Shown piece after piece: positions 2,998 to 23,933 of a DNA stretch of 64,000 bases. The stretch comes from Klebsiella phage 05F01. The stretch lies in the sequence record LC483177.1; one strand, 5' to 3'. The position numbers and the translations under genes are program-made. The first letter of the stretch is position 1. Each line of letters starts with the position of its first letter. Below the pieces are notes generated by a model, which saw only the letters and a list, made by a program, of their open reading frames with translations, made no database searches and was not told the origin of the DNA.

Positions 2998-3333
2998 TCA
3001 TTTTGTGTTACCTCTTTTTATTTCTCCTTCTTTCGGTAACAATAACAAATCCTCTGCTTTCCATCCGTTACGGGAGACTTGATATATTGCTTCCTCCACC
3101 TCTTCAATTTTGGCTTGCAATGCTGCTCTACGTTGGATCAAGGCTAAATGTAAGTTTTTAACGGCTTCTCCTGTTGTGGCTCCTGTGCTTTCGATCTCTC
3201 CGTTTCCAGTGCCTGGCATAGCTCCCGCTGTGCTGCTGGCGGTATAATGTCCACGCTTAGACCAGTAGACACGAAAATTTGACATTTGGAAAACATATTT
3301 TTTAAGGATATTGCAAAAGATAATCATTCTCAT
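2998..3333 (-). CDS. hypothetical protein
   Basis: ORF in the leftward block. The true start may be an internal Met. Confidence 0.4.
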   Translation of the reverse strand: MRMIIFCNILKKYVFQMSNFRVYWSKRGHYTASSTAGAMPGTGNGEIESTGATTGEAVKNLHLALIQRRAALQAKIEEVEEAIYQVSRNGWKAEDLLLLPKEGEIKRGNTK

Positions 3334-3353
3334 TAACCTTTTATTATGCTTGA

Positions 3354-6164: not shown

Positions 6165-6467
6165 ATGAATTCAGCAAAGTTATTAACACTATTAAGATCA
6201 ATCACTAATGACACGATTAAGGCGTGTCAAATTGGGGAATATACCCCTGATGCCATATTTCGTATCCATAACGAGAAAGTGTTAAATGTCAATAATATTG
6301 TGCGGTATAATCAAGATTTAAATAAAAAAGTTAAATTGAAATACTTTGCTGAAATTCGTAAAATTTCACTTGATCCATGCAGGAATAAAGGTTATGATGT
6401 AATCAGAAACCAGTTAATGACTAAAGCAAAAACATTAACAGGGTGTATCACTTTAAGTAAGCGTTAA
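6165..6467 (+). CDS. hypothetical protein (100 aa)
   Basis: ORF with RBS. Confidence 0.5.
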   Translation: MNSAKLLTLLRSITNDTIKACQIGEYTPDAIFRIHNEKVLNVNNIVRYNQDLNKKVKLKYFAEIRKISLDPCRNKGYDVIRNQLMTKAKTLTGCITLSKR

Positions 6468-6468
6468 G

Positions 6469-6496
6469 TTGACTTTTCGTTATAGCGTCCTATAAT
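6469..6496 (+). promoter_or_regulatory. sigma70-like promoter: TTGACT-16nt-TATAAT, with the -10 embedded in the palindrome ATAGCG...CGCTAT
   Basis: Near-consensus hexamers. The inverted repeat 6482..6487 / 6500..6505 flanks the -10. Confidence 0.55.
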
Positions 6497-6542
6497 GGGC
6501 GCTATAGAGAAGAGAAACTAGTCCAACAAAGAGAGTAAGCAA

Positions 6543-6716
6543 ATGGAAATTATAGCAGAACTTAAAATAAAAGGTATCGACCCGGTTATTATGACTTATG
6601 AGGATCTGCAATATACCGTAATATATGGGGAACAATCAGAAACTTACGATTATTACGATGAGGCGGAGCAGGCTTTTAAAGCGTTTGCCGAGCTTGCGAT
6701 GGATGAATATCGTTAA
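6543..6716 (+). CDS. small hypothetical protein (57 aa), not in the ORF track
   Basis: Hand translation gives MEIIAELKIKGIDPVIMTYEDLQYTVIYGEQSETYDYYDEAEQAFKAFAELAMDEYR. It lies downstream of the 6469 promoter. Confidence 0.35.
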   Translation: MEIIAELKIKGIDPVIMTYEDLQYTVIYGEQSETYDYYDEAEQAFKAFAELAMDEYR

Positions 6717-6723
6717 AAATAAG

Positions 6724-6752
6724 TTGACTTTCTGTAATGGCTGTGGAACAAT
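6724..6752 (+). promoter_or_regulatory. promoter cassette: TTGACT-17nt-AACAAT, with the palindrome AATGGCTGT...ACAGCCATT
   Basis: A duplicate of the cassette at 11480. It is followed by GAAGAGAGAAAC. Confidence 0.45.
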
Positions 6753-6796
6753 ACAGCCATTGAAGAGAGAAACCAAACAATCTAACGAGGTGTAAA

Positions 6797-9172: not shown

Positions 9173-9556
9173 ATGGAACATAAAGAACATATTAAAAACG
9201 CGGTAGCAGTTCGTGAGTATGTAGTAAACGCGATTGATTGCTCTGGTGATACAACTCAAAAGTTAAATTATTTTTTCAAAAACTTCAAAGCTGAATACGA
9301 TTATGAAGCAAATCGTAAACGTTATGGAAGTTTGACTAACATGGTAAGAGAGTACCTGTTAGGGCTTCCATCTACAATAAGTGTTGAATTCACTTATTTT
9401 GAGATCGAAAAACTTCTTAAAGAGTGGGGCTATATCCATGATAGAACCACTGAAAAACAATATGAAATTGAACTTGATAATTATTGGAAATACCTTGCTG
9501 TTGGGCTTTGCGTGATGGGGCGTAGAGCGGGGATTAAAGGCATTAAAGGTTTATAA
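9173..9556 (+). CDS. hypothetical protein (127 aa)
   Basis: ORF. Confidence 0.5.
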   Translation: MEHKEHIKNAVAVREYVVNAIDCSGDTTQKLNYFFKNFKAEYDYEANRKRYGSLTNMVREYLLGLPSTISVEFTYFEIEKLLKEWGYIHDRTTEKQYEIELDNYWKYLAVGLCVMGRRAGIKGIKGL

Positions 9557-9562
9557 AAGTAG

Positions 9563-9590
9563 TTGACTATTCGTTATGACCTGTTAGAAT
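9563..9590 (+). promoter_or_regulatory. promoter cassette: TTGACT-16nt-TAGAAT, with the palindrome ATGACCTGT...GCAGGTCAT
   Basis: A duplicate of the cassette at 12165. It is followed by AGAGAAAAGAAAC. Confidence 0.55.
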
Positions 9591-9637
9591 GCAGGTCATA
9601 GAGAAAAGAAACTAACCACTAATCGGGAATATAAAAA

Positions 9638-11311: not shown

Positions 11312-11472
11312 TCAGTGTTATGGTGAATGGGTTTAGTGAAATGGATCTCCCTGTTGATGAGTATCTGACAGTGTTTTCTTTCCTTGACTCTTTAGTTGAA
11401 ATGTGTGTCATTACAAATGAACAGAAACAAGAAAAGATTAAACGGATTAAAAAAGTTCTAGATATCGAATAA
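11257..11472 (+). CDS. hypothetical protein (71 aa)
   Basis: Overlaps the 3' end of the previous ORF. Uncertain. Confidence 0.3.
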   Translation: MANLNIVFYNNASNGERLISVMVNGFSEMDLPVDEYLTVFSFLDSLVEMCVITNEQKQEKIKRIKKVLDIE

Positions 11473-11479
11473 AAAGTAG

Positions 11480-11508
11480 TTGACTTTCTGTAATGGCTGT
11501 TAGATAAT
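11480..11508 (+). promoter_or_regulatory. promoter cassette: TTGACT...GATAAT, with the palindrome AATGGCTGT...ACAGCCATT
   Basis: Duplicate of the cassette at 6724. Confidence 0.5.
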
Positions 11509-11543
11509 ACAGCCATTGAAGAGAGAAACTAACAGGTGATAAC

Positions 11544-12052: not shown

Positions 12053-12164
12053 AATTTTTAATTAAAAAAGAAAATAGCTTGACAGTTGGGGTATTAAATG
12101 GTTTAATTTGTTGTATCCCTTTTTACTTTGTTTTATTTATTATCTTTTTAGTTATAAAATGTGC

Positions 12165-12192
12165 TTGACTATTCGTTATGACCTGTTAGAAT
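12165..12192 (+). promoter_or_regulatory. promoter cassette: TTGACT-16nt-TAGAAT, with the palindrome ATGACCTGT...ACAGGTCAT
   Basis: Near-identical copy of the ~60-bp region at 9563. Confidence 0.55.
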
Positions 12193-12238
12193 ACAGGTCA
12201 TAGAGAAAAGAAACCACAACCAACAAAGAGAGATACAA

Positions 12239-13076: not shown

Positions 13077-13346
13077 ATGACCAATACAGAACTTTTAATG
13101 AAGGCTTTAGGCTGGCAAGGTGGCACCGTTCACCAGGTGGCACAAGTAACTAAGTTAAATGTAATGACAATCTTAAACCTTCATGAAATAAAGATCACTG
13201 ATACATACCAGCTTGCTATGTATAATGGAGGCTACTTATGGCTAGTTAATGGTGGGAGTGAAAAAAACATTGACAAAGATAGTTTAGGGTACCCTCTTTT
13301 TTGGTTGGGTGTGTTGGATGCAATGAAACAAAAGATACCTAGTTAA
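13077..13346 (+). CDS. hypothetical protein
   Basis: The internal ATG (MTNTELLMKALGW...) is preferred over the track's TTG start. Confidence 0.35.
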   Translation: MTNTELLMKALGWQGGTVHQVAQVTKLNVMTILNLHEIKITDTYQLAMYNGGYLWLVNGGSEKNIDKDSLGYPLFWLGVLDAMKQKIPS

Positions 13347-13348
13347 TG

Positions 13349-13378
13349 TTGACAAGCCCCAGGGAATGGGGCTATAAT
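13349..13378 (+). promoter_or_regulatory. strong sigma70-like promoter, TTGACA-18nt-TATAAT, with no downstream ORF
   Basis: Consensus hexamers. The spacer contains the palindrome CCCCA...TGGGG. Confidence 0.55.
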
Positions 13379-13609
13379 CATGGCATACAGAAGAGGACAC
13401 GCCACCCCACGGCGTAAAGGCGGGGCTAACATACCTGGAAAGGTAGCCAGGATGTAAGGTCGATCGCAGGTAGCTCGACTCGAATTTCTTTTGTAAAGAT
13501 TAATTAAAGTGCTTGCGTCCTAGGTTGGTTGTGTTAATATATCTACATGGCGAGGGGTAACGGGAATCGCGAGACAAACACAGAACCTGCGCGTCATCCT
13601 GTAAATGCG

Positions 13610-13622
13610 AATGAGTCTCATT
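13610..13622. promoter_or_regulatory. perfect palindrome AATGAG-T-CTCATT (putative operator)
   Basis: 13-bp palindrome in a non-coding region. Confidence 0.35.
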
Positions 13623-13639
13623 TCGGTCTCTAAATGAGA

Positions 13640-13673
13640 ATGATTATCATTTACAAATAAGAATGATTATCAT
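13640..13673. promoter_or_regulatory. two copies of GAATGATTATCAT (palindrome ATGAT-T-ATCAT) 23 bp apart; operator or Fur-box-like
   Basis: Cores at 13640..13650 and 13663..13673. They differ by one base from the Fur-box core AATGATAATCATT. Confidence 0.4.
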
Positions 13674-13696
13674 CTATGTGTAAGGGGAAATATCAC

Positions 13697-13744
13697 ATTA
13701 TAAATTTAGGTTTTGGTTTTCCTGGAAAAAAACTTTAAATAAAT
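13697..13744 (+). repeat. 45-bp repeat, copy 1: ATTATAAATTTAGGTTTTGGTTTT-n-AACTTTAAATAAAT
   Basis: One of three copies, at 13697, 13820 and 22812. Confidence 0.6.
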
Positions 13745-13819
13745 GGGAAATTTTTGGTTAAATTTTATTCTGTATTTTAACTTTTACTACCACAGTATTA
13801 ATATTTTTAAACAAACCTA

Positions 13820-13867
13820 ATTATAAATTCAGGTTTTGGTTTTAACAGACAGAAAGTTTAAATAATT
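13820..13867 (+). repeat. 45-bp repeat, copy 2
   Basis: ATTATAAATTCAGGTTTTGGTTTT...AGTTTAAATAATT. Confidence 0.6.
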
Positions 13868-13965
13868 TGGTAGAATTACACAGAAATTTTTATCATTATT
13901 TTAAATAATAAATCTTTAATGTAATGCAAACAAAATAAAATAGCTTATAGACATATAAGATATAA

Positions 13966-13982
13966 ATGTTATATTATAACAT
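13966..13982. repeat. perfect palindrome ATGTTATA-T-TATAACAT
   Basis: The same palindrome core recurs at 22861..22875, next to repeat copy 3. Confidence 0.5.
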
Positions 13983-14093
13983 AACAGAGTTTGTCATTTA
14001 TTAAAATGAAATATAAAATGTGGGAGGTGAGTGCTCTTTGTTTTTGGAACACCCCACCCCCTTAATTTTATTTACATATTTTTATAAATATCA

Positions 14094-14612
14094 CTAAATA
14101 TCTTTACTTAAAAAGTAATTAATTAAATCATTGTGCCACTTACCAAGCAGGTTTTGTCCCTTCCAGTTACTAGAGTCCTCTACCCCTTGATCATACATTC
14201 CCATCTTAATGCCATAGATTGCATCGTAAGGGCTAGCCTCTACGAATACCTTGTCTACGTATTTCATCAACTCTGTTTTGAGTTCAGGGTTTTGAGTATA
14301 CTTCATGAACAAACCACGTTTAACAATAACCTCCCGCCAATGCAACCACATTTCTTCCTCATAACCTTTAACTTCTCTTCCCATTCGTTTGTAGTAAGCT
14401 TGATCTTTTTCTCCTACACGTTTACGGCTTCCATTTAGGATTGCTAATGCAGTGTCATAGTCTTTAAACAATGAGGCTTTGCGCCACATCATATATTGTT
14501 CGACACAATCAAAATATTTACATCTCATTTTGTCATAGAATGGTGCAACATACCAGTTACTGAAAACATCTTTATCTGTGAAGAAGAATACATACTTATC
14601 TGTTACTCTCAC
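14094..14612 (-). CDS. NADAR (DUF1768 / YbiA-like) domain protein
   Basis: FFF...FSNWY..PF, EQYMMWRKA, QNPELK and VEASPYDAIYGI match the NADAR signature. Confidence 0.65.
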   Translation of the reverse strand: MRVTDKYVFFFTDKDVFSNWYVAPFYDKMRCKYFDCVEQYMMWRKASLFKDYDTALAILNGSRKRVGEKDQAYYKRMGREVKGYEEEMWLHWREVIVKRGLFMKYTQNPELKTELMKYVDKVFVEASPYDAIYGIKMGMYDQGVEDSSNWKGQNLLGKWHNDLINYFLSKDI

Positions 14613-16898: not shown

Positions 16899-17171
16899 TT
16901 ATTTCCTTACCTCATACCCATTTGACTCTGTCCACAGGAGAAGAACACCAGTGGATTTGTATATTTCAATGCATTTTGTCATATGCAGAATGTACATGTC
17001 AATCTCTTTAATATCTTTTCTGAATTTATTTACAGAAAGAGAAAAGCAAGATTGAGGGATACTTTTACGATTTACAAGGTCACGTTTAAAGTGTTGAAAA
17101 TCTTTTACTAATCGTTTCCTTTCTGCCTTAATTGCTTTAAGTGCAGTTCCATCATACGGGTGCTTTTTCAT
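16899..17171 (-). CDS. hypothetical protein (90 aa)
   Basis: ORF. Confidence 0.45.
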   Translation of the reverse strand: MKKHPYDGTALKAIKAERKRLVKDFQHFKRDLVNRKSIPQSCFSLSVNKFRKDIKEIDMYILHMTKCIEIYKSTGVLLLWTESNGYEVRK

Positions 17172-18421
17172 TAATCCTCACATTTCAATAAGAACTTATT
17201 GTTAATAACTTTGAAGTGCACTGTGATACCATTCACTTTAGATACACTCTTGTATACATCACCTTCAGCGATTTTATGCTTGATAGATGCATGATCAGCA
17301 GAATCAAGCGCCTCTTTAATAGAAGAGTACTCATCGAAGAAGGACACAATATCACCTTGTGGGACAGTTGTCAACCCTAGTAGTGAAGATAGCGTTAAGA
17401 AATCATCATCATCAAGGAAGCAACGGTTGTCAATATCCCAGATACGGAATGCGTAGAACTGGTAATCTTCTAGTTCTTCACGATTGCCCTGAATACCCGG
17501 CCCCATACATTCACCTTGGATAGCTAGCTGACGATTATTAGCTACACAATACTCTTTTAGACGTTCTGGAATATTGTCTTTTAGTGCTGCTTTCCAGAAG
17601 TGAGATTCTGGGTCAAATTTCAGTGCTAGATTACGAGAACAAACAGAAATCTGACCGCAATCCCACTGGAATGGATAAGGCTTAACTTCTACAACCTCCA
17701 GTTCTTGAGTTTCTTCATTCCATGCACGAATTTCATCGTCAACTTTATCAACATAAAAATCTGGGTTACTCATGAAGGCAATAGTCTGACTAGAGCCGTC
17801 TAGTTTCAATGATTTACGAAAACTTACACCTTTCATGGTATGAGAGAATTTACCAAATACGTTCTGGATACGGTCTTCATCAGTTTTTGGAATTACAATA
17901 GGGAAGTTACCTGCTGCTTTACATTTACCTAAACCACCATTGCGTTCGTCAGGACGTTCGTACTTAGTTACGTGCACAAATTGTTCAATACCGTCACGAG
18001 ACTCTTCGAGATCTGCAAGTAGTAGCTCACGTGTTTTTGCAGTGAAAGAGTCTGGATGGTAACCATTAGCAGTGTCGATATCTTCTAGTACAGATTCGAA
18101 CATAGTTACTGGTAGAGCAAGGCCCTGAGAAACAACGCCACGTAGTTTACGTGTACGTAGACGGAAACGCTCAACATTCTGTTCGTCAATCTTACATGCA
18201 CTTCCTGCTAAGAATGAAAACTGCTGTGCCTTTACTGGTAGGAAGGAATCAATTTCGAAGAATACACAGTAATCTCCAACTTGAAATTCACCTTTTTTAA
18301 CTACAACATCCCAACCATCTACAGTTGCTTTTACGATCATATCCGCACCTTCAATCGGATCAATAGCATTAATTTTACGAATAGTGACCAGTTTACGACC
18401 TTCTTTAATTAGCTCTTTCAT
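17171..18421 (-). CDS. ATP-dependent polynucleotide ligase, Rnl-like (N-terminal domain + nucleotidyltransferase domain)
   Basis: Ligase motifs are present: I (KLDGSS), III (FYAFRIWD), IV (AEGDVYK) and V (VHFKVIN). There is no C-terminal OB domain. The ~200-aa N-terminal domain resembles Rnl5-type RNA ligases. Confidence 0.5.
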   Translation of the reverse strand: MKELIKEGRKLVTIRKINAIDPIEGADMIVKATVDGWDVVVKKGEFQVGDYCVFFEIDSFLPVKAQQFSFLAGSACKIDEQNVERFRLRTRKLRGVVSQGLALPVTMFESVLEDIDTANGYHPDSFTAKTRELLLADLEESRDGIEQFVHVTKYERPDERNGGLGKCKAAGNFPIVIPKTDEDRIQNVFGKFSHTMKGVSFRKSLKLDGSSQTIAFMSNPDFYVDKVDDEIRAWNEETQELEVVEVKPYPFQWDCGQISVCSRNLALKFDPESHFWKAALKDNIPERLKEYCVANNRQLAIQGECMGPGIQGNREELEDYQFYAFRIWDIDNRCFLDDDDFLTLSSLLGLTTVPQGDIVSFFDEYSSIKEALDSADHASIKHKIAEGDVYKSVSKVNGITVHFKVINNKFLLKCED

Positions 18422-18433
18422 TATTTCCCCCTA

Positions 18434-18760
18434 TTAATTCACATTAATACCGAAAGATTCACTTAACATCTTCCATTCTGTGCTATAAAAGTCCCGCCCA
18501 TGTATACAACGAACAAAACACATGCAGTATTCTTTCAGCAAATCAAAAACACTTAAGTCTTTATAAAAAATTACTTCACTATCACCATACCGCATATTGA
18601 TTGTGATTGCCTCTCCATCATCCGTAAGATACATACCACTTTTTGCTTGTGTATTTAAATCAGCTTCCCAAATACCCCTATCTTTGTCAAATGAAATTGA
18701 TACATAAATTCCCTTTTCAGATAAAAACTCAAGAGATCTTACTACTTTTTCATTAAACAT
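18434..18760 (-). CDS. hypothetical protein
   Basis: Start placed at MFNEK, which has an AAGGAG RBS. Confidence 0.45.
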   Translation of the reverse strand: MFNEKVVRSLEFLSEKGIYVSISFDKDRGIWEADLNTQAKSGMYLTDDGEAITINMRYGDSEVIFYKDLSVFDLLKEYCMCFVRCIHGRDFYSTEWKMLSESFGINVN

Positions 18761-19268
18761 CTTTATCTCCTTCGATAAGAGTAACACCCACCTTACTTAA
18801 AGTAGATGTTGACATATGCGGGTATTTTTCAAAATCTTGTAAATCTTTCTTAAGCTGCTCTTGTCGTTCTTTAAAAACTTTTTCAACTAATTTAGAAACA
18901 ACTTCTTGGTTAAGTTTTGGTCTGCTTTCTTCTAGTTCGAGCAGTTCATTCTCATGCCGCTTTTTAAGTTCAACTAACTTGTTATTATGTTCAACTTCAT
19001 CCATTGCATCTTTGCATACACAGCAATGACCAATATCATAATAACCTGTAAAGAAACCTCGGCCTTTTTCTAGCTCACCTTGAATAGGTAATGCTTTTCT
19101 TCCGCAATAAGCACAATATTTATGATAGAAACCTTCAATGGACAGAACTTTTGTTGGTTTTGCTCCAGATGTAGAATTATACTCACCCACATACCCGTCT
19201 CTACCGTATACATGATGAAAGAATGGGTAGGCACGTTCATCTACATGTTCTTCATTACGTCGCGTCAT
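18753..19268 (-). CDS. hypothetical Cys-rich protein (171 aa)
   Basis: CAYCGRK...HCCVCKD motifs. Confidence 0.45.
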   Translation of the reverse strand: MTRRNEEHVDERAYPFFHHVYGRDGYVGEYNSTSGAKPTKVLSIEGFYHKYCAYCGRKALPIQGELEKGRGFFTGYYDIGHCCVCKDAMDEVEHNNKLVELKKRHENELLELEESRPKLNQEVVSKLVEKVFKERQEQLKKDLQDFEKYPHMSTSTLSKVGVTLIEGDKDV

Positions 19269-19271
19269 TTA

Positions 19272-19562
19272 TTAATCCTCTAACAAGTAATCGTGGAGTT
19301 CTTCACAACTTAAACCTTCTTCCCACATGAAGTGAACATCTTTTGTTTCACTTCCATAGTTGGCATCTATTGGGAAGTAGCGGAACTCATAATGGTTACT
19401 ATTCTTTTTAATATTCAGCATTATATCCATCTCACTATCAATGATATTTCCTATATCATTATATGTTAATGCACACTGAGATAATAAAGTAGGGAATGGA
19501 GAAACACCATCATCCCACCCTAAAAGAACCATAAAGCATAAGTCTTCATTAACACTTTTCAT
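19272..19562 (-). CDS. hypothetical protein (96 aa)
   Basis: ORF. Confidence 0.45.
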   Translation of the reverse strand: MKSVNEDLCFMVLLGWDDGVSPFPTLLSQCALTYNDIGNIIDSEMDIMLNIKKNSNHYEFRYFPIDANYGSETKDVHFMWEEGLSCEELHDYLLED

Positions 19563-19759
19563 CAGATTTCCTCTTCGTATTTGATGAACTTAGTGTATGC
19601 AATTACGTTAGATTTGTCAAAGTAAAATGCACCATTAATGATAGATATTTTACCACTTGCTGCGTTATGCACTTCACAATACCCATACTCACCATCTTCC
19701 ATGTAGACGAGACACATACCTAAAGGAAGATCTTCTGTTGACTTAACTTTAATCCACAT
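19562..19759 (-). CDS. hypothetical protein (65 aa)
   Basis: ORF. Confidence 0.4.
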   Translation of the reverse strand: MWIKVKSTEDLPLGMCLVYMEDGEYGYCEVHNAASGKISIINGAFYFDKSNVIAYTKFIKYEEEI

Positions 19760-19776
19760 ACTTACTCCAGATATTT

Positions 19777-20013
19777 TTAATTAATGACTGGATACTCTCT
19801 TTCATAGGTTCTAAAAGACAGACTATCACCACACCATTCTATACCTAAATATGGGTCATCTAAGTGTTCTATATCAAGAACACAAGCATTTCCTACTTCG
19901 TACCTTTCTCCATAAGCATCAATATATGTAGGTACCGCATCAATCAATAAGACAGCAACAACTTTAGTATATACCTTATCATGATTATCTTTCACATACA
20001 AAGTATTTATCAT
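19777..20013 (-). CDS. hypothetical protein (78 aa)
   Basis: ORF. Confidence 0.4.
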   Translation of the reverse strand: MINTLYVKDNHDKVYTKVVAVLLIDAVPTYIDAYGERYEVGNACVLDIEHLDDPYLGIEWCGDSLSFRTYEREYPVIN

Positions 20014-20390
20014 TATCGCACCTCTAAGCTTGGGATTAAGGTTTGTGGAGCAAAGATAACACGAGTGTGGTCAACACTCACCTGAGCACCATCCACTTGC
20101 TCAATAAAGTATGTAGTATCAGTAGATAGCCCCATGTAATGTTTCTTCACAGAACCGTTAGCCTTATCACGACAAGTGATGATGAGTGTTCGATCAGTGC
20201 TACTATTGTCTTTTGCACAATACCCTTCAATGCGCATCAGCTCTTTGTCTGTACGAGTATTGATGAAGTGGGTAGAACGCAACACTTCAAAATTATCGCC
20301 AGCTGTGGCGATGTTACGGCTCGCAACGTCAGCAGCTTGTTCACAACCAACCAAACTCATGAATAGAATAGCCATTAAAACCTTTTTCAT
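20013..20390 (-). CDS. putative lipoprotein (lipobox LVGC), GC-richer
   Basis: Signal peptide MKKVLMAILFMSLVGC. GC-richer codon usage. Confidence 0.5.
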   Translation of the reverse strand: MKKVLMAILFMSLVGCEQAADVASRNIATAGDNFEVLRSTHFINTRTDKELMRIEGYCAKDNSSTDRTLIITCRDKANGSVKKHYMGLSTDTTYFIEQVDGAQVSVDHTRVIFAPQTLIPSLEVR

Positions 20391-20552
20391 TTTTTACTCT
20401 CCTCTATTTGAAAATTTTATAGTAAGGAAGTTTTTTGATCAACTCCTCTGGTGTTCTACTTTCAGTCCAAGTGGCTCCACCATCCGTAGAGGCGTAGCCC
20501 TTGTTGCCAACGTATTTACGCATGATAGCACGAAACTGATTTTGATAGATAG

Positions 20553-20777
20553 TCATTCCATCTCCTTTATTGCATAATCTAAAACATCTCTAAGGTTTTT
20601 AGCATCTTGCAAAGTTAAAGAGAAACCTAAACCACAAGAGTTCAATTTGAGTCGTATCTGATCATCATAATCCGGGTAGCAATATGCAAATACCTCTTGA
20701 CGGCCAAAATTACCCTCAGCAGCATATAATCTTACTTGACGAGGCCAAACATCCAACGGTCTTTCCACTCTTACCAT
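20553..20777 (-). CDS. hypothetical protein (74 aa)
   Basis: ORF. Confidence 0.4.
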   Translation of the reverse strand: MVRVERPLDVWPRQVRLYAAEGNFGRQEVFAYCYPDYDDQIRLKLNSCGLGFSLTLQDAKNLRDVLDYAIKEME

Positions 20778-20778
20778 T

Positions 20779-21003
20779 TTATACCCCTGGTGGTAAAGTT
20801 ATACCGCCGCTACTGCGACAGCGGGAAAGATACCCTGTATTGTGAGCCGAAGACGTTTTTTCAAGCCACTCTACCTTATCATGAAGGTCTTGACATTGTA
20901 AATACATCTCCCAAAATTGAATAATTACCTGTTGTTTAGGTACACCACGGAAATGTTCTTGGAACTCTTCAAAATGTTCCATCGTAAGCTGTTCTGATTT
21001 CAT
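20779..21003 (-). CDS. hypothetical protein (74 aa)
   Basis: ORF. Confidence 0.4.
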   Translation of the reverse strand: MKSEQLTMEHFEEFQEHFRGVPKQQVIIQFWEMYLQCQDLHDKVEWLEKTSSAHNTGYLSRCRSSGGITLPPGV

Positions 21004-21197
21004 TTCTTATCCTTTTCAACAGAGTAGCCACGTGATTTAAGGTATTCTAAACACAACATCTCCATATGAGATGGATCTGTGCAATACTTACCTTCAATCT
21101 TATCTAGATCTGAAACCTTAACACGAAAGCCTATAACTCTAGTATCTTCAATTTCCCTAGAATTGCCCCCAGGTGAATTGATTACAGAAATGATCAT
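21000..21197 (-). CDS. hypothetical protein (65 aa)
   Basis: ORF. Confidence 0.4.
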   Translation of the reverse strand: MIISVINSPGGNSREIEDTRVIGFRVKVSDLDKIEGKYCTDPSHMEMLCLEYLKSRGYSVEKDKK

Positions 21198-21205
21198 AAA
21201 TCCTC

Positions 21206-21499
21206 CTACCAGATTTGAAAATGTGCTTCTAAACGGTAATGTTTTTGTTTATTACCCCATACTGCATACACTCCTGAGTTCCACCCACTTCCATCTCTTG
21301 AAGCTTTCCTTGCATGTTCCGGTGTTAACAACATAGTATCATAATCGTTCTTACATTTATATAGAGTATTCTCTCCTGTTACAATTCTTTGGCACTCATT
21401 TTTTACTTTATCATATTGAATCATAAACTCTTCAGCAGTTGTTGTTTCTAGAGTACAACCACTGATAACTAAAGTCAACATCAAAACTAAGTATTTCAT
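21206..21499 (-). CDS. putative lipoprotein (lipobox ISGC), paralog of 24943..25239
   Basis: EEFMIQYDKVKNECQRI matches HEFMLQYNKVKKECSRI in the 24943 protein. Confidence 0.5.
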   Translation of the reverse strand: MKYLVLMLTLVISGCTLETTTAEEFMIQYDKVKNECQRIVTGENTLYKCKNDYDTMLLTPEHARKASRDGSGWNSGVYAVWGNKQKHYRLEAHFQIW

Positions 21500-21966
21500 T
21501 TCTTTTTCCTTTTCTGGAGCTTGTTATGACCTTTACCTTTCTTAATCTTGTGTTGAGTGTAATCAAAGCAACCCGGTTTTTTAACCATCACTTCCGGTGT
21601 CTTAAAATTAATCTCAACATCACGACACATTTCCTTAATAGAGTGCGAGAAATGAGCTAGTACTCTCTCCTCAATAAATGAAAAATCCATCTCAGTAAGA
21701 GTAGACGAGATTTCTTTACGTTCATCTACGCTCAGTCTCACTTCATCTTCCTTCCATTCGTAGTGATCTTCAACCACCATCCAACCATCATTCTGCCATT
21801 CTTCGCCACGGAACCAACTATCCATCGGGTATCCAGCTTCATCTACCATTCGCCCACCGTTGTTAGCTGGCATGTGAAAATACTCTTCACCTGTAAAGTA
21901 TTCATGTTTCACTTTACAACCTTGCTCCATCATTGCCACTGCTTGTGTGTAAGATAAATTATACAT
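21496..21966 (-). CDS. DUF2829 (Tad2-like) domain protein with a C-terminal extension
   Basis: The N-terminus, LSYTQAVAMMEQGCKVKHEYF...MDSWFRGEEWQNDGWMVVE, resembles the DUF2829 pattern (AL..GKKV.R..W ... PW..SQ.DLLAEDWEIV). Start placed at MYNLS. Confidence 0.35.
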   Translation of the reverse strand: MYNLSYTQAVAMMEQGCKVKHEYFTGEEYFHMPANNGGRMVDEAGYPMDSWFRGEEWQNDGWMVVEDHYEWKEDEVRLSVDERKEISSTLTEMDFSFIEERVLAHFSHSIKEMCRDVEINFKTPEVMVKKPGCFDYTQHKIKKGKGHNKLQKRKKK

Positions 21967-22036
21967 TCTGTGTCTCCTCTCGTTTGTATGCATACATCTT
22001 AACACAGCTTATGGGTATGTCAACAACTAAATCCTA

Positions 22037-22092: not shown

Positions 22093-22665
22093 ATGAAATT
22101 TTCAGATTTAGGTATCACTGTAGAGGACTTAGAGGGGATTTGGTATGAAGATGGTATGGAGGAGGATTTTGATGATGACAATCCAGACTCTAAGTTTTCC
22201 TATCTTAGTCAAGGAGCAAACTCCGTAGTCTTTAACATCAAAGACTGTCCATCATGTGTGCTTAAGCTTGTGATGTTCGATGGCGACCCTTTCATTGAGT
22301 TAATGAAGTTGAGTGAAGAAGACAGGAAACTCTGTTCTCTGCCTGTATTGTATGATAAGTATGAGAATGGGGGACTCTACCTTTACTTGATTGAGAGATG
22401 CTATGATGCTAAGTTTGACCAGACAGAGTATCAGGACCTGTTTGGTATCCCTTATTGTTTTGAGGAAGTAAGGAGTAGTAGACTTAAGAAATTGGAGAGT
22501 AGTTGTGATAAGCTTACTGAACTATTTAGTGATAGGATTAATGAAGAGGGAAGTATTGTATCTCCTCTTGGTGAGTTGATGTGGGATTGGGATATTTATG
22601 ATGACAATATTCTTATGAGGAAGAATGGAGAGTTAGTAATAGTTGATCCATTCTGTGCTGGATAA
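22093..22665 (+). CDS. hypothetical protein with a possible protein-kinase-like fold
   Basis: GANSVVFNI...VLKL has a glycine-loop / VAIK-like shape. DDNILMRKNGELVIVDPF has a catalytic-loop / DFG-like shape. Weak support. Confidence 0.3.
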   Translation: MKFSDLGITVEDLEGIWYEDGMEEDFDDDNPDSKFSYLSQGANSVVFNIKDCPSCVLKLVMFDGDPFIELMKLSEEDRKLCSLPVLYDKYENGGLYLYLIERCYDAKFDQTEYQDLFGIPYCFEEVRSSRLKKLESSCDKLTELFSDRINEEGSIVSPLGELMWDWDIYDDNILMRKNGELVIVDPFCAG

Positions 22666-22811
22666 ACTAATTGTTTCATTCCCCTTCTTTCAGAAGTGTC
22701 ATGAAACATAGATATATTATATAATCTTTTCCTTCGGAAACCTATAGGGTTAGGGTAACATGGGAATTTAAATACGTCAATACCTAATTTATAAGTTGTT
22801 GTAAACACTAC

Positions 22812-22860
22812 ATTTTAAATTTAGGTTTTGGTTTATGTGGAGAAAAAGTTTAAATAATTA
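22812..22860 (+). repeat. 45-bp repeat, copy 3
   Basis: ATTTTAAATTTAGGTTTTGGTTT...AAAGTTTAAATAATTA. The palindrome TGTTATATTATAACA (22861..22875) follows immediately. Confidence 0.6.
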
Positions 22861-22893
22861 TGTTATATTATAACAATAACGAAGGGTATAAGT

Positions 22894-22930
22894 TGTTATA
22901 CCAATTACATGTGGGATGTTATACCAATTA
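22894..22930 (+). repeat. direct repeats TGTTATACCAATTA x2, 23 bp apart (iteron-like)
   Basis: Copies at 22894..22907 and 22917..22930. Confidence 0.5.
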
Positions 22931-23032
22931 TAGGGTTAATACCTTAAGTGTTTGAATTAATGTGGTTTACATCTTCCATTAACATACTAATGAATAAATC
23001 TGGTCTAGACCAGATACAACAGGAGAAAATAG

Positions 23033-23218
23033 ATGAGAGATAAATTTGAGCTTTACATGGCGGGTAAGTTAGGTTATCTTGTCTCTGAGATTAAGTATGC
23101 TAGAGACCCATTTGATGGATATCTCTACGCTTTCGATGTCACACACCCACTACACTGCTTAGATAGTGCGTGGCGTTTGTGGAAAGTTGCTTACAATATG
23201 GGAGCTAAAGATGACTAA
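23033..23218 (+). CDS. hypothetical protein (61 aa)
   Basis: ORF. Confidence 0.4.
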   Translation: MRDKFELYMAGKLGYLVSEIKYARDPFDGYLYAFDVTHPLHCLDSAWRLWKVAYNMGAKDD

Positions 23219-23408
23219 ATACACCTGCTTAGAAAAAATTACTTACGATTTTAATGATGAACAGATTGACAAGGTAGTTTTTTCTGTTAAGGTCGAATGG
23301 GACAAATATACACATCATTCTGGTTGGTGGTTGCCTTTTGAGACATTAGGTAAGAAACAGTATCAGTGTGGTGTAGAGCAATATATTGTATGGAAGGAGG
23401 TAGTATGA
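23211..23408 (+). CDS. hypothetical protein
   Basis: Internal Met (MTKYTCLEK) chosen as the start. Confidence 0.4.
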   Translation: MTKYTCLEKITYDFNDEQIDKVVFSVKVEWDKYTHHSGWWLPFETLGKKQYQCGVEQYIVWKEVV

Positions 23409-23725
23409 AAGTACGTATTGATAAAGATTACTGTTCAGAACCTGTATGGGTTTGTGATAATGAAGAAGGATTTTTCCCTAATGGAGATCTTGACGACTTT
23501 AAAGGAATGCTATCTGAAGACTTAATCAAAGAGTTACAGGAGTACAGCGATTTGTGGGAAAGTGTTTATTGGGACCACAGTAATATCACCACACAAGCCT
23601 ATGAAGCTTTTGATAAATTATTTGAAAAGCTGACAAAATCATTAGCTAAAGCTTGCAAAGAGCAGCAACCTCAAATAGAATGGTGCTATTGGTGTTCAAG
23701 TAAAGGAACAGAAATCTACGTGTAA
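23405..23725 (+). CDS. hypothetical protein
   Basis: Start at MKVRIDK, which has a strong GGAAGGAGG RBS. Confidence 0.5.
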   Translation: MKVRIDKDYCSEPVWVCDNEEGFFPNGDLDDFKGMLSEDLIKELQEYSDLWESVYWDHSNITTQAYEAFDKLFEKLTKSLAKACKEQQPQIEWCYWCSSKGTEIYV

Positions 23726-23735
23726 GGGGGTTACT

Positions 23736-23933
23736 ATGGTGTACGTGAATGTGATGCTACCGCTTGATCCTAACCGTTCTGATGATCGTCAATTTGAACT
23801 TACTGTCTACAACGAGGGAATTCTCCTTGAACGTGAGGCTAATGAAATGTACGATTATGAATCAGTGGCTCTGAGTAAAGAACAAGCACTGCGTCTTGCA
23901 GCTTTTATCTTTGCATCCTATGATATAAAGTAG
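23736..23933 (+). CDS. hypothetical protein (65 aa)
   Basis: ORF. Confidence 0.4.
   Translation: MVYVNVMLPLDPNRSDDRQFELTVYNEGILLEREANEMYDYESVALSKEQALRLAAFIFASYDIK

Follow-up and report, generated by a model that had tools for sequence, protein, structure and literature searches.

What role do three copies of a bipartite sequence element play in Klebsiella phage 05F01, given that two of them point into DNA with no gene in their orientation? We addressed this question in 64,000 nt of the phage genome (64 kb; 35% GC; sequence record LC483177.1), hereafter referred to as the window. Comparison with related phages indicates that the element is real, looks functional, and works as DNA; we understand it best as one of the repeat units, differing by lineage, that a conserved non-coding control locus carries. 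Within this framework, we favor, with a probability of about 0.4, the reading that it is a rightward, weak, factor-dependent promoter-type module that precedes an unwinding region and was reused with an operator at 22.8 kb. An earlier examination of the letters alone (the sequence-only reading) had proposed a promoter, a replication or recombination site, or a module boundary; the promoter and replication-site options appear to survive together, and the two are not separable from sequence.

One element in three copies

The three copies that had been proposed, all in the same orientation, were borne out at the following positions by sequence inspection, a pattern scan, a repeat search, and a profile hidden Markov model (HMM); a doubtful fourth candidate closes the list:

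13697-13744, plus strand: element copy 1, ATTATAAATTTAGGTTTTGGTTT and ACTTTAAATAAAT separated by 12 nt (sequence inspection, pattern scan, repeat search, profile HMM)
13820-13867, plus strand: element copy 2, in tandem with copy 1 at a period of 123 bp (pattern scan, repeat search, profile HMM)
22812-22860, plus strand: element copy 3, 170 nt upstream of open reading frame (ORF) 23033, inside a 368-bp intergenic region without a counterpart in relatives
22741-22775, plus strand: a doubtful candidate for a degenerate copy 4, TATAGGGTTAGGGTAACATGGGAATTTAAATAC

The pattern AGGTTTTGGTTT-N12-A.TTTAAATAA has three exact matches in the window, all on the same strand, against 0.01 expected from 100 dinucleotide-preserving shuffles, and no further match appears when up to three mismatches are allowed. 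Independently, the repeat search grouped the copies into one 55-nt family with 76-84% identity, and the profile HMM built from them returned only those three matches in the window (E ~1e-13; the next had E = 4.5). The candidate fourth copy can be aligned by eye and with MAFFT, yet it went undetected in the profile search and was rejected.

The alignment reveals a bipartite element with a common 23-nt left half and a right box, A[C/G]TTTAAATAA, kept at a fixed distance by a 12-nt spacer that is purine-rich but not conserved. The element has a dyad character (TTTAAA with a T-tract on one side, an A-tract with TTTAAA on the other), and, as had been suggested, TTGGTT-17-TAAATA can be read in every copy. 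All copies point in the direction of the locus promoters described below and of the genes that follow copy 3. As RNA, the units fold no better than shuffled sequences (z +0.07 to +1.6), the predicted pairings differ between copies, and the variation in the spacer shows no compensation. No ORF of at least 26 aa lies behind copies 1 and 2, and the lack of both an RNA hairpin and an ORF favors a role at the DNA level.

Genes in this part of the window point left between 1.6 and 5.3 kb, right between 5.4 and 13.3 kb, left again between 14.1 and 22.0 kb, and right from 22.1 kb onward. Copies 1 and 2 therefore sit in a convergent, ORF-free gap of ~750 bp, and the earlier remark that no rightward gene lies ahead of them is correct; the reason is that they belong to a conserved non-coding locus. 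The description of the copies as bracketing the leftward block is looser, as an 88-bp divergent region and the rightward gene 22093-22665 stand between copy 3 and that block.

A conserved non-coding control locus

The gap that holds copies 1 and 2 contains, from left to right, the following features in addition to the element:

13349-13378, plus strand: sigma70 promoter TTGACA-18-TATAAT, 12/12 to consensus, heading the locus (consensus scan; conserved in relatives)
13385-13630, plus strand: conserved non-coding, RNA-like block with a candidate internal promoter at 13513-13540
13632-13676, no strand assigned: two Fur-box-like palindromes (AATGAGAATGATTATCATT), 16/19 to the E. coli Fur consensus
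13868-14015, no strand assigned: AT-rich tract (stability scan)
13966-13989, no strand assigned: operator-like palindrome ATGTTATATTATAACAT with the common extension TAACAGAG
14020-14061, no strand assigned: GC-rich hairpin GTGGGAGGTG...CACCCCACCCCC with T-rich runs on both strands

The conserved block anchors the locus. This GC-richer, non-coding segment of ~250 nt is 70-85% identical in 237 phage records belonging to Stephanstirmvirinae and Vequintavirinae; outside the block, almost no similarity of their DNA to the window can be detected. Even Stephanstirmvirinae (phi92, phAPEC8-like phages, and Klebsiella phage KP13-16) are only distantly related to it at the DNA level. One compact locus thus retains nucleotide-level conservation across two subfamilies that otherwise share almost nothing. 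In an alignment of eight lineages, some long stretches, such as ACGCCACCCCACGGCG.AAAGGCGGGGCTAAC, are invariant; compensatory changes occur in one helix, and there is a candidate second internal promoter. Rfam returned no match to the window at gathering thresholds, and none to 13200-14150 even at E values up to 5; a search for the block in E. coli found no homologue, and the window contains no tRNAs. Judging from these sequence features, the region at 13349-13630 is a candidate for an undescribed phage non-coding RNA (ncRNA).

Near-consensus Fur boxes (TGAGAAT-G-ATTATCA; up to 16-17/19 to GATAATGATAATCATTATC) accompany the conserved locus in every lineage, where they number 2-5: two in the window and 3-5 in phi92, alia (80196-80290), and CR9. 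Across the window, five sites reach at least 15/19, including at 3313-3337, against ~1 in shuffles. These boxes could place the locus under iron/Fur control or, alternatively, titrate Fur.

No DNA in the window is less stable than that directly downstream of copy 2, whether taken over 100, 200, or 400 bp; the minimum for 100 bp is 13884-13983 (87% AT) and that for 400 bp is 13728-14127, ~4 SD from the mean. The hairpin that follows looks like a bidirectional terminator serving both the locus and a leftward NADAR-family gene, whose stop codon lies just beyond it.

In all lineages, the right boundary of the locus carries two or three AAATATCA repeats ~10-13 bp apart (14086-14104 in the window); genome-wide, this octamer is no more frequent than expected. 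The locus of the window contains no DnaA box. In ABPH49, a perfect one, TTATCCACA, lies downstream of the array.

The repeat array in related phages

We examined the order of features in phi92, alia, anhysbys, ukendt, 536P1, KP13-16, CR9, Mydo, SSE-121, 4MG, NINP13076, and ABPH49. The arrangement of promoter, conserved block, Fur-like boxes, 2-4 tandem repeats, and AT-rich DNA is syntenic in these relatives. Copies 1 and 2 are the window's tandem repeats in this non-coding control locus, which all rV5/phi92-like phages have in common.

At the syntenic position, phi92, alia, anhysbys, ukendt, 536P1, and IMG14004 carry 2-3 tandem units. In the phi92-like and phAPEC8-like phages these are spaced 68-75 bp apart when there are three copies or ~138 bp when there are two, and all end in AAAAA[C/G]TTTAAATA[A/C], followed by TG 3-6 nt downstream. 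Their upstream halves are homologous as well: the window's AAATTTAGGTTTTGGTTTT has its counterparts in AAATTGAAGTTTTCATTTT (phi92) and TAAATTTTGGTTTT (anhysbys), phi92 and the window agreeing at 14/20 positions.

Other lineages place unrelated units at the same position. KP13-16, the closest relative according to the conserved block (85%), has two units of quite different sequence, and AATACG..CGATCGAGAACC and AAAATTATGGATTTT..TGTCAAAAATGCTA occupy the site in Vequintavirinae and KP13-16. Vequintavirinae carry 2-4 tandem units (65-70 bp) of the form AAAAATTTTTTCG ... AATACG ... CGATCGAGAACC, each with 1-2 GATC. The presence of an array is therefore kept, and the type of its repeat turns over from lineage to lineage.

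The sequence-only reading had called for a genome-wide motif search. The TTTAAATA-type unit is restricted to this non-coding locus in the complete genomes of 536P1 (149 kb) and alia (148 kb), with 2 and 3 tandem copies; other matches are single chance occurrences within genes, and none precedes structural genes. The unit was likewise absent from phi92 1-50 kb. Given this confinement to one locus in two complete relatives, the element is no general middle or late promoter class.

Copy 3 and the palindrome at 22.8 kb

The second site adds the following features to copy 3:

22860-22884, no strand assigned: second palindrome with extension, directly abutting copy 3
22894-22932, plus strand: a pair of direct repeats, TGTTATACCAATTA[CT]A, in which the palindrome half-site TGTTATA recurs (repeat search)

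TGTTATATTATAACA occurs as a perfect palindrome at 13967-13981 and 22861-22875, as had been noticed, the second directly abutting copy 3. With up to two mismatches, TGTTATATTATAACA has seven strand-wise matches in the window against 0.61 expected. The homology between the two sites runs 8-9 nt further right, as ATGTTATATTATAACA(A)TAAC[AG][GA]AG at 13966-13989 and 22860-22884. The claim that each copy lies near a palindrome applies to copy 3 and less so to the others, since copy 1 is ~220 nt and copy 2 ~100 nt away.

Copy 3 lies in the 368-bp gap (22.67-23.03 kb) after the first rightward gene, 22093-22665, which has a weak kinase-like PHROG match. Downstream is a string of small ORFs, then genes for a methyltransferase, a nucleotidyltransferase, and a helicase. 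Nothing in the phage collection matched 22660-23040 at the DNA level; the proteins flanking copy 3 had no relatives in IMG/VR, and ORF 23366 gave only distant, non-syntenic matches. Genes 22093-23933 lack homologues in KP13-16 (a 20-kb region was compared), alia, and 536P1, and KP13-16 lacks both an equivalent intergenic gap and a third occurrence of its own repeat. Removing the ~100-bp AT-rich spacer between copy 2 and its palindrome gives the arrangement of copy 3 and its palindrome. By its sequence and position, the pair reads as a promoter-operator module, a lineage-specific duplicate ahead of novel genes.

Directly after the stop of gene 22093-22665 lies a stem-loop (22672-22708; 17-nt arms, 3-nt loop), which overlaps a sigma70-like site, GTGTCA-18-TATAAT, at 22696-22725.

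A proposed promoter-type module before unwinding DNA

We favor the promoter-type module because the element is bipartite and its orientation agrees throughout with the locus promoters and with the genes after copy 3; because units in relatives keep the TTTAAATA core and the TG, some reaching the sigma70 threshold; because the units precede the least stable DNA and then the terminator-like hairpin; and because the 12/12 sigma70 promoter and the RNA-like block point into the array. AATAAT forms the last six bases of TTTAAATAAT, and, read as a -10 box, it brings two relatives' copies to 9/12; TTGTAA-16-AATAAT in anhysbys and TAGAAA-17-AATAAT in phi92 stand at the scanner's sigma70 threshold. The TG pyrimidine-purine step a few bases downstream fits a transcription start. 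Copy 3 shares the orientation of ORF 23033, whereas copies 1 and 2 face only non-coding DNA as far as the terminator. Copy 3 also comes after the stem-loop behind gene 22093-22665. Since the genes that it precedes have no homologues in KP13-16, alia, and 536P1, they would need regulation of their own, which also speaks for a promoter.

In the proposed mechanism, each module would combine an A-tract with a -10-like box TTTAAATA(AT), transcription starting at the conserved TG/G 4-6 nt downstream, and would have a separate upstream half (TAAATTTAGGTTTTGGTTTT) bound by a protein. Following the sigma70 promoter, the RNA block, and the Fur-like boxes, the two tandem units would launch or receive non-coding transcription, which would enter the stretch of the region that melts most easily and end at the bidirectional terminator. 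One unit and the downstream palindrome would have been duplicated to 22.8 kb in this phage, where the palindrome and the TGTTATA half-site repeats may act as an operator and the unit as the promoter of the downstream rightward genes.

This arrangement resembles promoter-primed origins such as T4 oriF(uvsY) and oriG(34) and the T7 primary origin, in which the tandem promoters phi1.1A and phi1.1B precede an AT-rich region. There, as in the reading proposed here, one or two promoter-like units precede an AT-rich, easily unwound stretch into which transcription proceeds, and the site is non-coding and unique in the genome, as it is here. In contrast, the promoters of T4 and T7 belong to a genome-wide class, whereas the present unit is locus-confined and scores poorly against sigma70; the phage locus also has an additional upstream RNA-like block and Fur-like boxes, and origin activity is put forward here as a proposal. 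To our knowledge, the rV5/phi92-like phages have no mapped origin so far.

A number of findings weigh against this interpretation. None of the three window copies passes the plus-strand sigma70 consensus scan: TTGGTT matches TTGACA at 3/6 positions, below the threshold of at least 4/6, and TAAATA lacks the invariant final T of a -10 box. The overlapping AATAAT of copies 2 and 3 and of several relatives' copies is 5/6 as a -10, but in the window it then has no -35. The TTGGTT at 17 nt is not conserved in phi92, and the upstream half lies 13 nt from the TTTAAATA box in the window versus 30 nt in phi92 and anhysbys, a 17-nt difference that is no whole number of helical turns. Most units of Vequintavirinae and KP13-16 are not promoter-like, which implies that the common function of the array may be protein binding rather than transcription initiation. 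AT-rich non-coding DNA is, moreover, to be expected in a 35% GC phage.

Nor was a candidate initiator or activator protein identified for the units when the small gene just upstream of the locus (13077-13346, plus strand) was tested. This gene, which has no Pfam match, contains an HTH-looking motif (MTNTELLMKALGWQGGTVHQVAQVTKLNVMTILNL...), and it is common to phAPEC8-like and phi92-like phages; unrelated small proteins take its place in KP13-16/NINP13076, Mydo/4MG, and ABPH49. The slot is kept, with occupants from at least four unrelated families. As a cognate regulator the gene was promising across three lineages, but NINP13076, 4MG, and ABPH49 refuted it: its family B accompanies both K-type and V-type repeats, so that it does not co-vary with the repeat type.

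A TATAAT on the minus strand, complementary to ATTATA at the left edge of copies 1 and 2, raised the option of a leftward promoter, which was also rejected: this -10 is not conserved in relatives, and the promoter would face antisense into unrelated genes.

The group of phages represented by rV5, phi92, and phAPEC8 is widely used in phage therapy collections, and we know of no replication origin or non-sigma70 regulatory element that has been mapped experimentally in it. If the units are origin promoters or initiator sites, they would explain how replication is started in these phages and offer a handle for engineering. A Fur-box array together with a conserved RNA would tie phage development to the iron physiology of the host. 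If the units are only ordinary weak promoters, the gain in annotation is modest.

Possible iteron-like binding sites

The main rival, which we consider possible though rather unlikely, is that the units are not promoters and instead serve as iteron-like binding sites for a DNA-binding or architectural protein of phage or host, so that the locus would work as an origin, as a roadblock to transcription, or as a nucleoprotein hub, with copy 3 as a second site. Every lineage examined has 2-4 tandem units of lineage-specific sequence (S-type, V-type with GATC, K-type, and at least one other), and this turnover fits binding sites well, since proteins and sites that evolve together typically show it. 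The restriction of the unit to one place in complete genomes, its dyad character, its position beside the least stable DNA, and its weak sigma70 scores agree with the same view. However, neither the conserved downstream TG nor the uniform orientation is explained by simple sites, no candidate binder was found, the adjacent small gene fails the co-variation test, and the window's locus lacks a DnaA box.

Comparison with known systems is similarly divided. As in iteron origins, and as in P4, which has an ori plus distant 120-bp crr repeats, direct repeats of lineage-specific sequence are clustered beside AT-rich DNA (two units in the window, 2-4 in relatives), with a distant extra copy in cis. 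On the other hand, the periods of 68-186 bp are far longer than the ~20 bp of classical iterons, and there is no nearby initiator gene that co-varies with the repeats, the small upstream gene having been the one tested.

A broader proposal, which we regard as improbable, extends these ideas to the whole ~750-bp locus, with its sigma70 promoter, structured conserved RNA, Fur boxes, tandem units, and unwinding element: it may be an undescribed, family-wide cis hub, an RNA-primed origin coupled to the Fur/iron status of the host, for which the element would be the entry or assembly module and the 22.8-kb site a second origin or a co-regulated promoter.

Recombination and module boundaries

We consider it very unlikely that the copies are recombination substrates or scars, either as a mobile regulatory cassette resembling the early promoter and stem-loop (PeSL) type or as crossover sites that move or invert the 14-22 kb block. 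The relation of copy 3 with its palindrome to copy 2 suggests a segmental duplication, copy 3 stands among genes without homologues in relatives, and the palindrome could recombine in either orientation. Gene order within 14.1-22 kb has indeed been rearranged: relative to the locus, genes 16899-22005 are inverted with respect to their homologues in KP13-16, alia, and 536P1, and the methyltransferase and nucleotidyltransferase genes are inverted the other way with respect to KP13-16. Yet the junction between the NADAR gene and the locus is conserved in relatives, as is the divergent region beside gene 21496-22005 in comparison with alia. Because both junctions are conserved, the breakpoints do not coincide with the copies. 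In its simple version, the proposed module boundary lacks support; an exchangeable module bounded by the copies was rejected, the rearrangements being internal and multiple. Furthermore, tandem units were present at the locus in the ancestor of the subfamily.

An invertible segment fares no better. The copies point the same way, and direct repeats of this kind would yield deletion, not inversion; the AAACC-NN-GGTTT core is missing at or near the elements, its only match in the window (5857) being unrelated; and tblastn with the phi92 and FBKp34 recombinases found no serine recombinase in the window. The sequence AGGTTTTGG resembles a gix half-site of Gin, and a serine recombinase gene is present in relatives, which gives the element some likeness to Hin/Gin/Cin sites; here, however, there is no second, inverted half-site, and a crossover site of the Hin/Gin type was rejected together with the invertible segment.

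PeSL cassettes, reportedly described by Arbiol and colleagues in 2010 as mobile regulatory cassettes of T4-type phages, share with the element a repeated promoter-like unit that has a palindrome, one copy of which lies among ORFan genes. Their true analogues in the window are instead a TTGACT-17-TAGAAT family with five copies, whereas the element has only three, two of them ancestral. The members of this other early promoter family (6461-6518, 6714-6776, 9555-9612, 11470-11532, and 12157-12214) lie between small rightward genes, carry a palindrome that wraps the -10 region, and resemble T4-type PeSL cassettes.

RNA-level repeats and late promoters

That the units act as RNA, as modules of a non-coding transcript running from the sigma70 or a Fur-controlled promoter to the terminator at 14.06 kb and serving, for example, as a protein or small RNA (sRNA) sponge, is scarcely plausible. 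Strong upstream promoters do point through the array and a terminator closes it, and the 208 nt at 13868-14075 fold somewhat better than shuffles (z = -2.7), mainly owing to the terminator; the units themselves, however, fold like shuffled sequence with inconsistent pairings and an uncompensated spacer, and copy 3 stands in a different transcript context.

The likeness to T4-type late promoters noted in the sequence-only reading, in which a phage late sigma factor would read sites of the TATAAATA class, can be dismissed almost entirely: TTTAAATA does match 7/8 of the downstream box TATAAATA, in an AT-rich context with no -35, but the unit is not spread before late genes, being absent from the rest of 536P1 and alia, structural regions included, and from phi92 1-50 kb, while copy 3 precedes genes of early or middle type (methyltransferase, helicase), and the rV5 genome paper (PMC3606486) reports no gp55, gp33, or gp45 homologues and a different late motif, TggTAaAAtA, the group having no known late sigma factor.

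Wider searches and additional observations

A literature search for promoters, origins, Fur boxes, and ncRNAs in this phage group identified only the rV5 genome paper (PMC3606486). Exact-pattern scans of IMG/VR, JGI metagenomes, and GTDB genomes returned unrelated AT-rich contigs, none with the conserved block or the palindrome. Among them, a family of environmental contigs with 23-25% GC contains a look-alike tandem arrangement, TTTAAATTGAGGTTTTGGTTT-12-AATTTAAATAAATT, next to iteron-like repeats, and four singletons were also found. The genes of the contig family are unrelated (a glycosyltransferase and a permease-like protein), and their TTTAAATA may be an archaeal-type TATA box. We rejected them as relatives and regard the matches as chance or as unrelated promoters.

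Finally, the RNA ligase gene at 17171-18421 (minus strand) has ~79% nucleotide identity to the giant Salmonella and Klebsiella phages 7t3, Munch, and fENko-Kae01. This identity is far above that of the rest of the window, which suggests a recent horizontal transfer.

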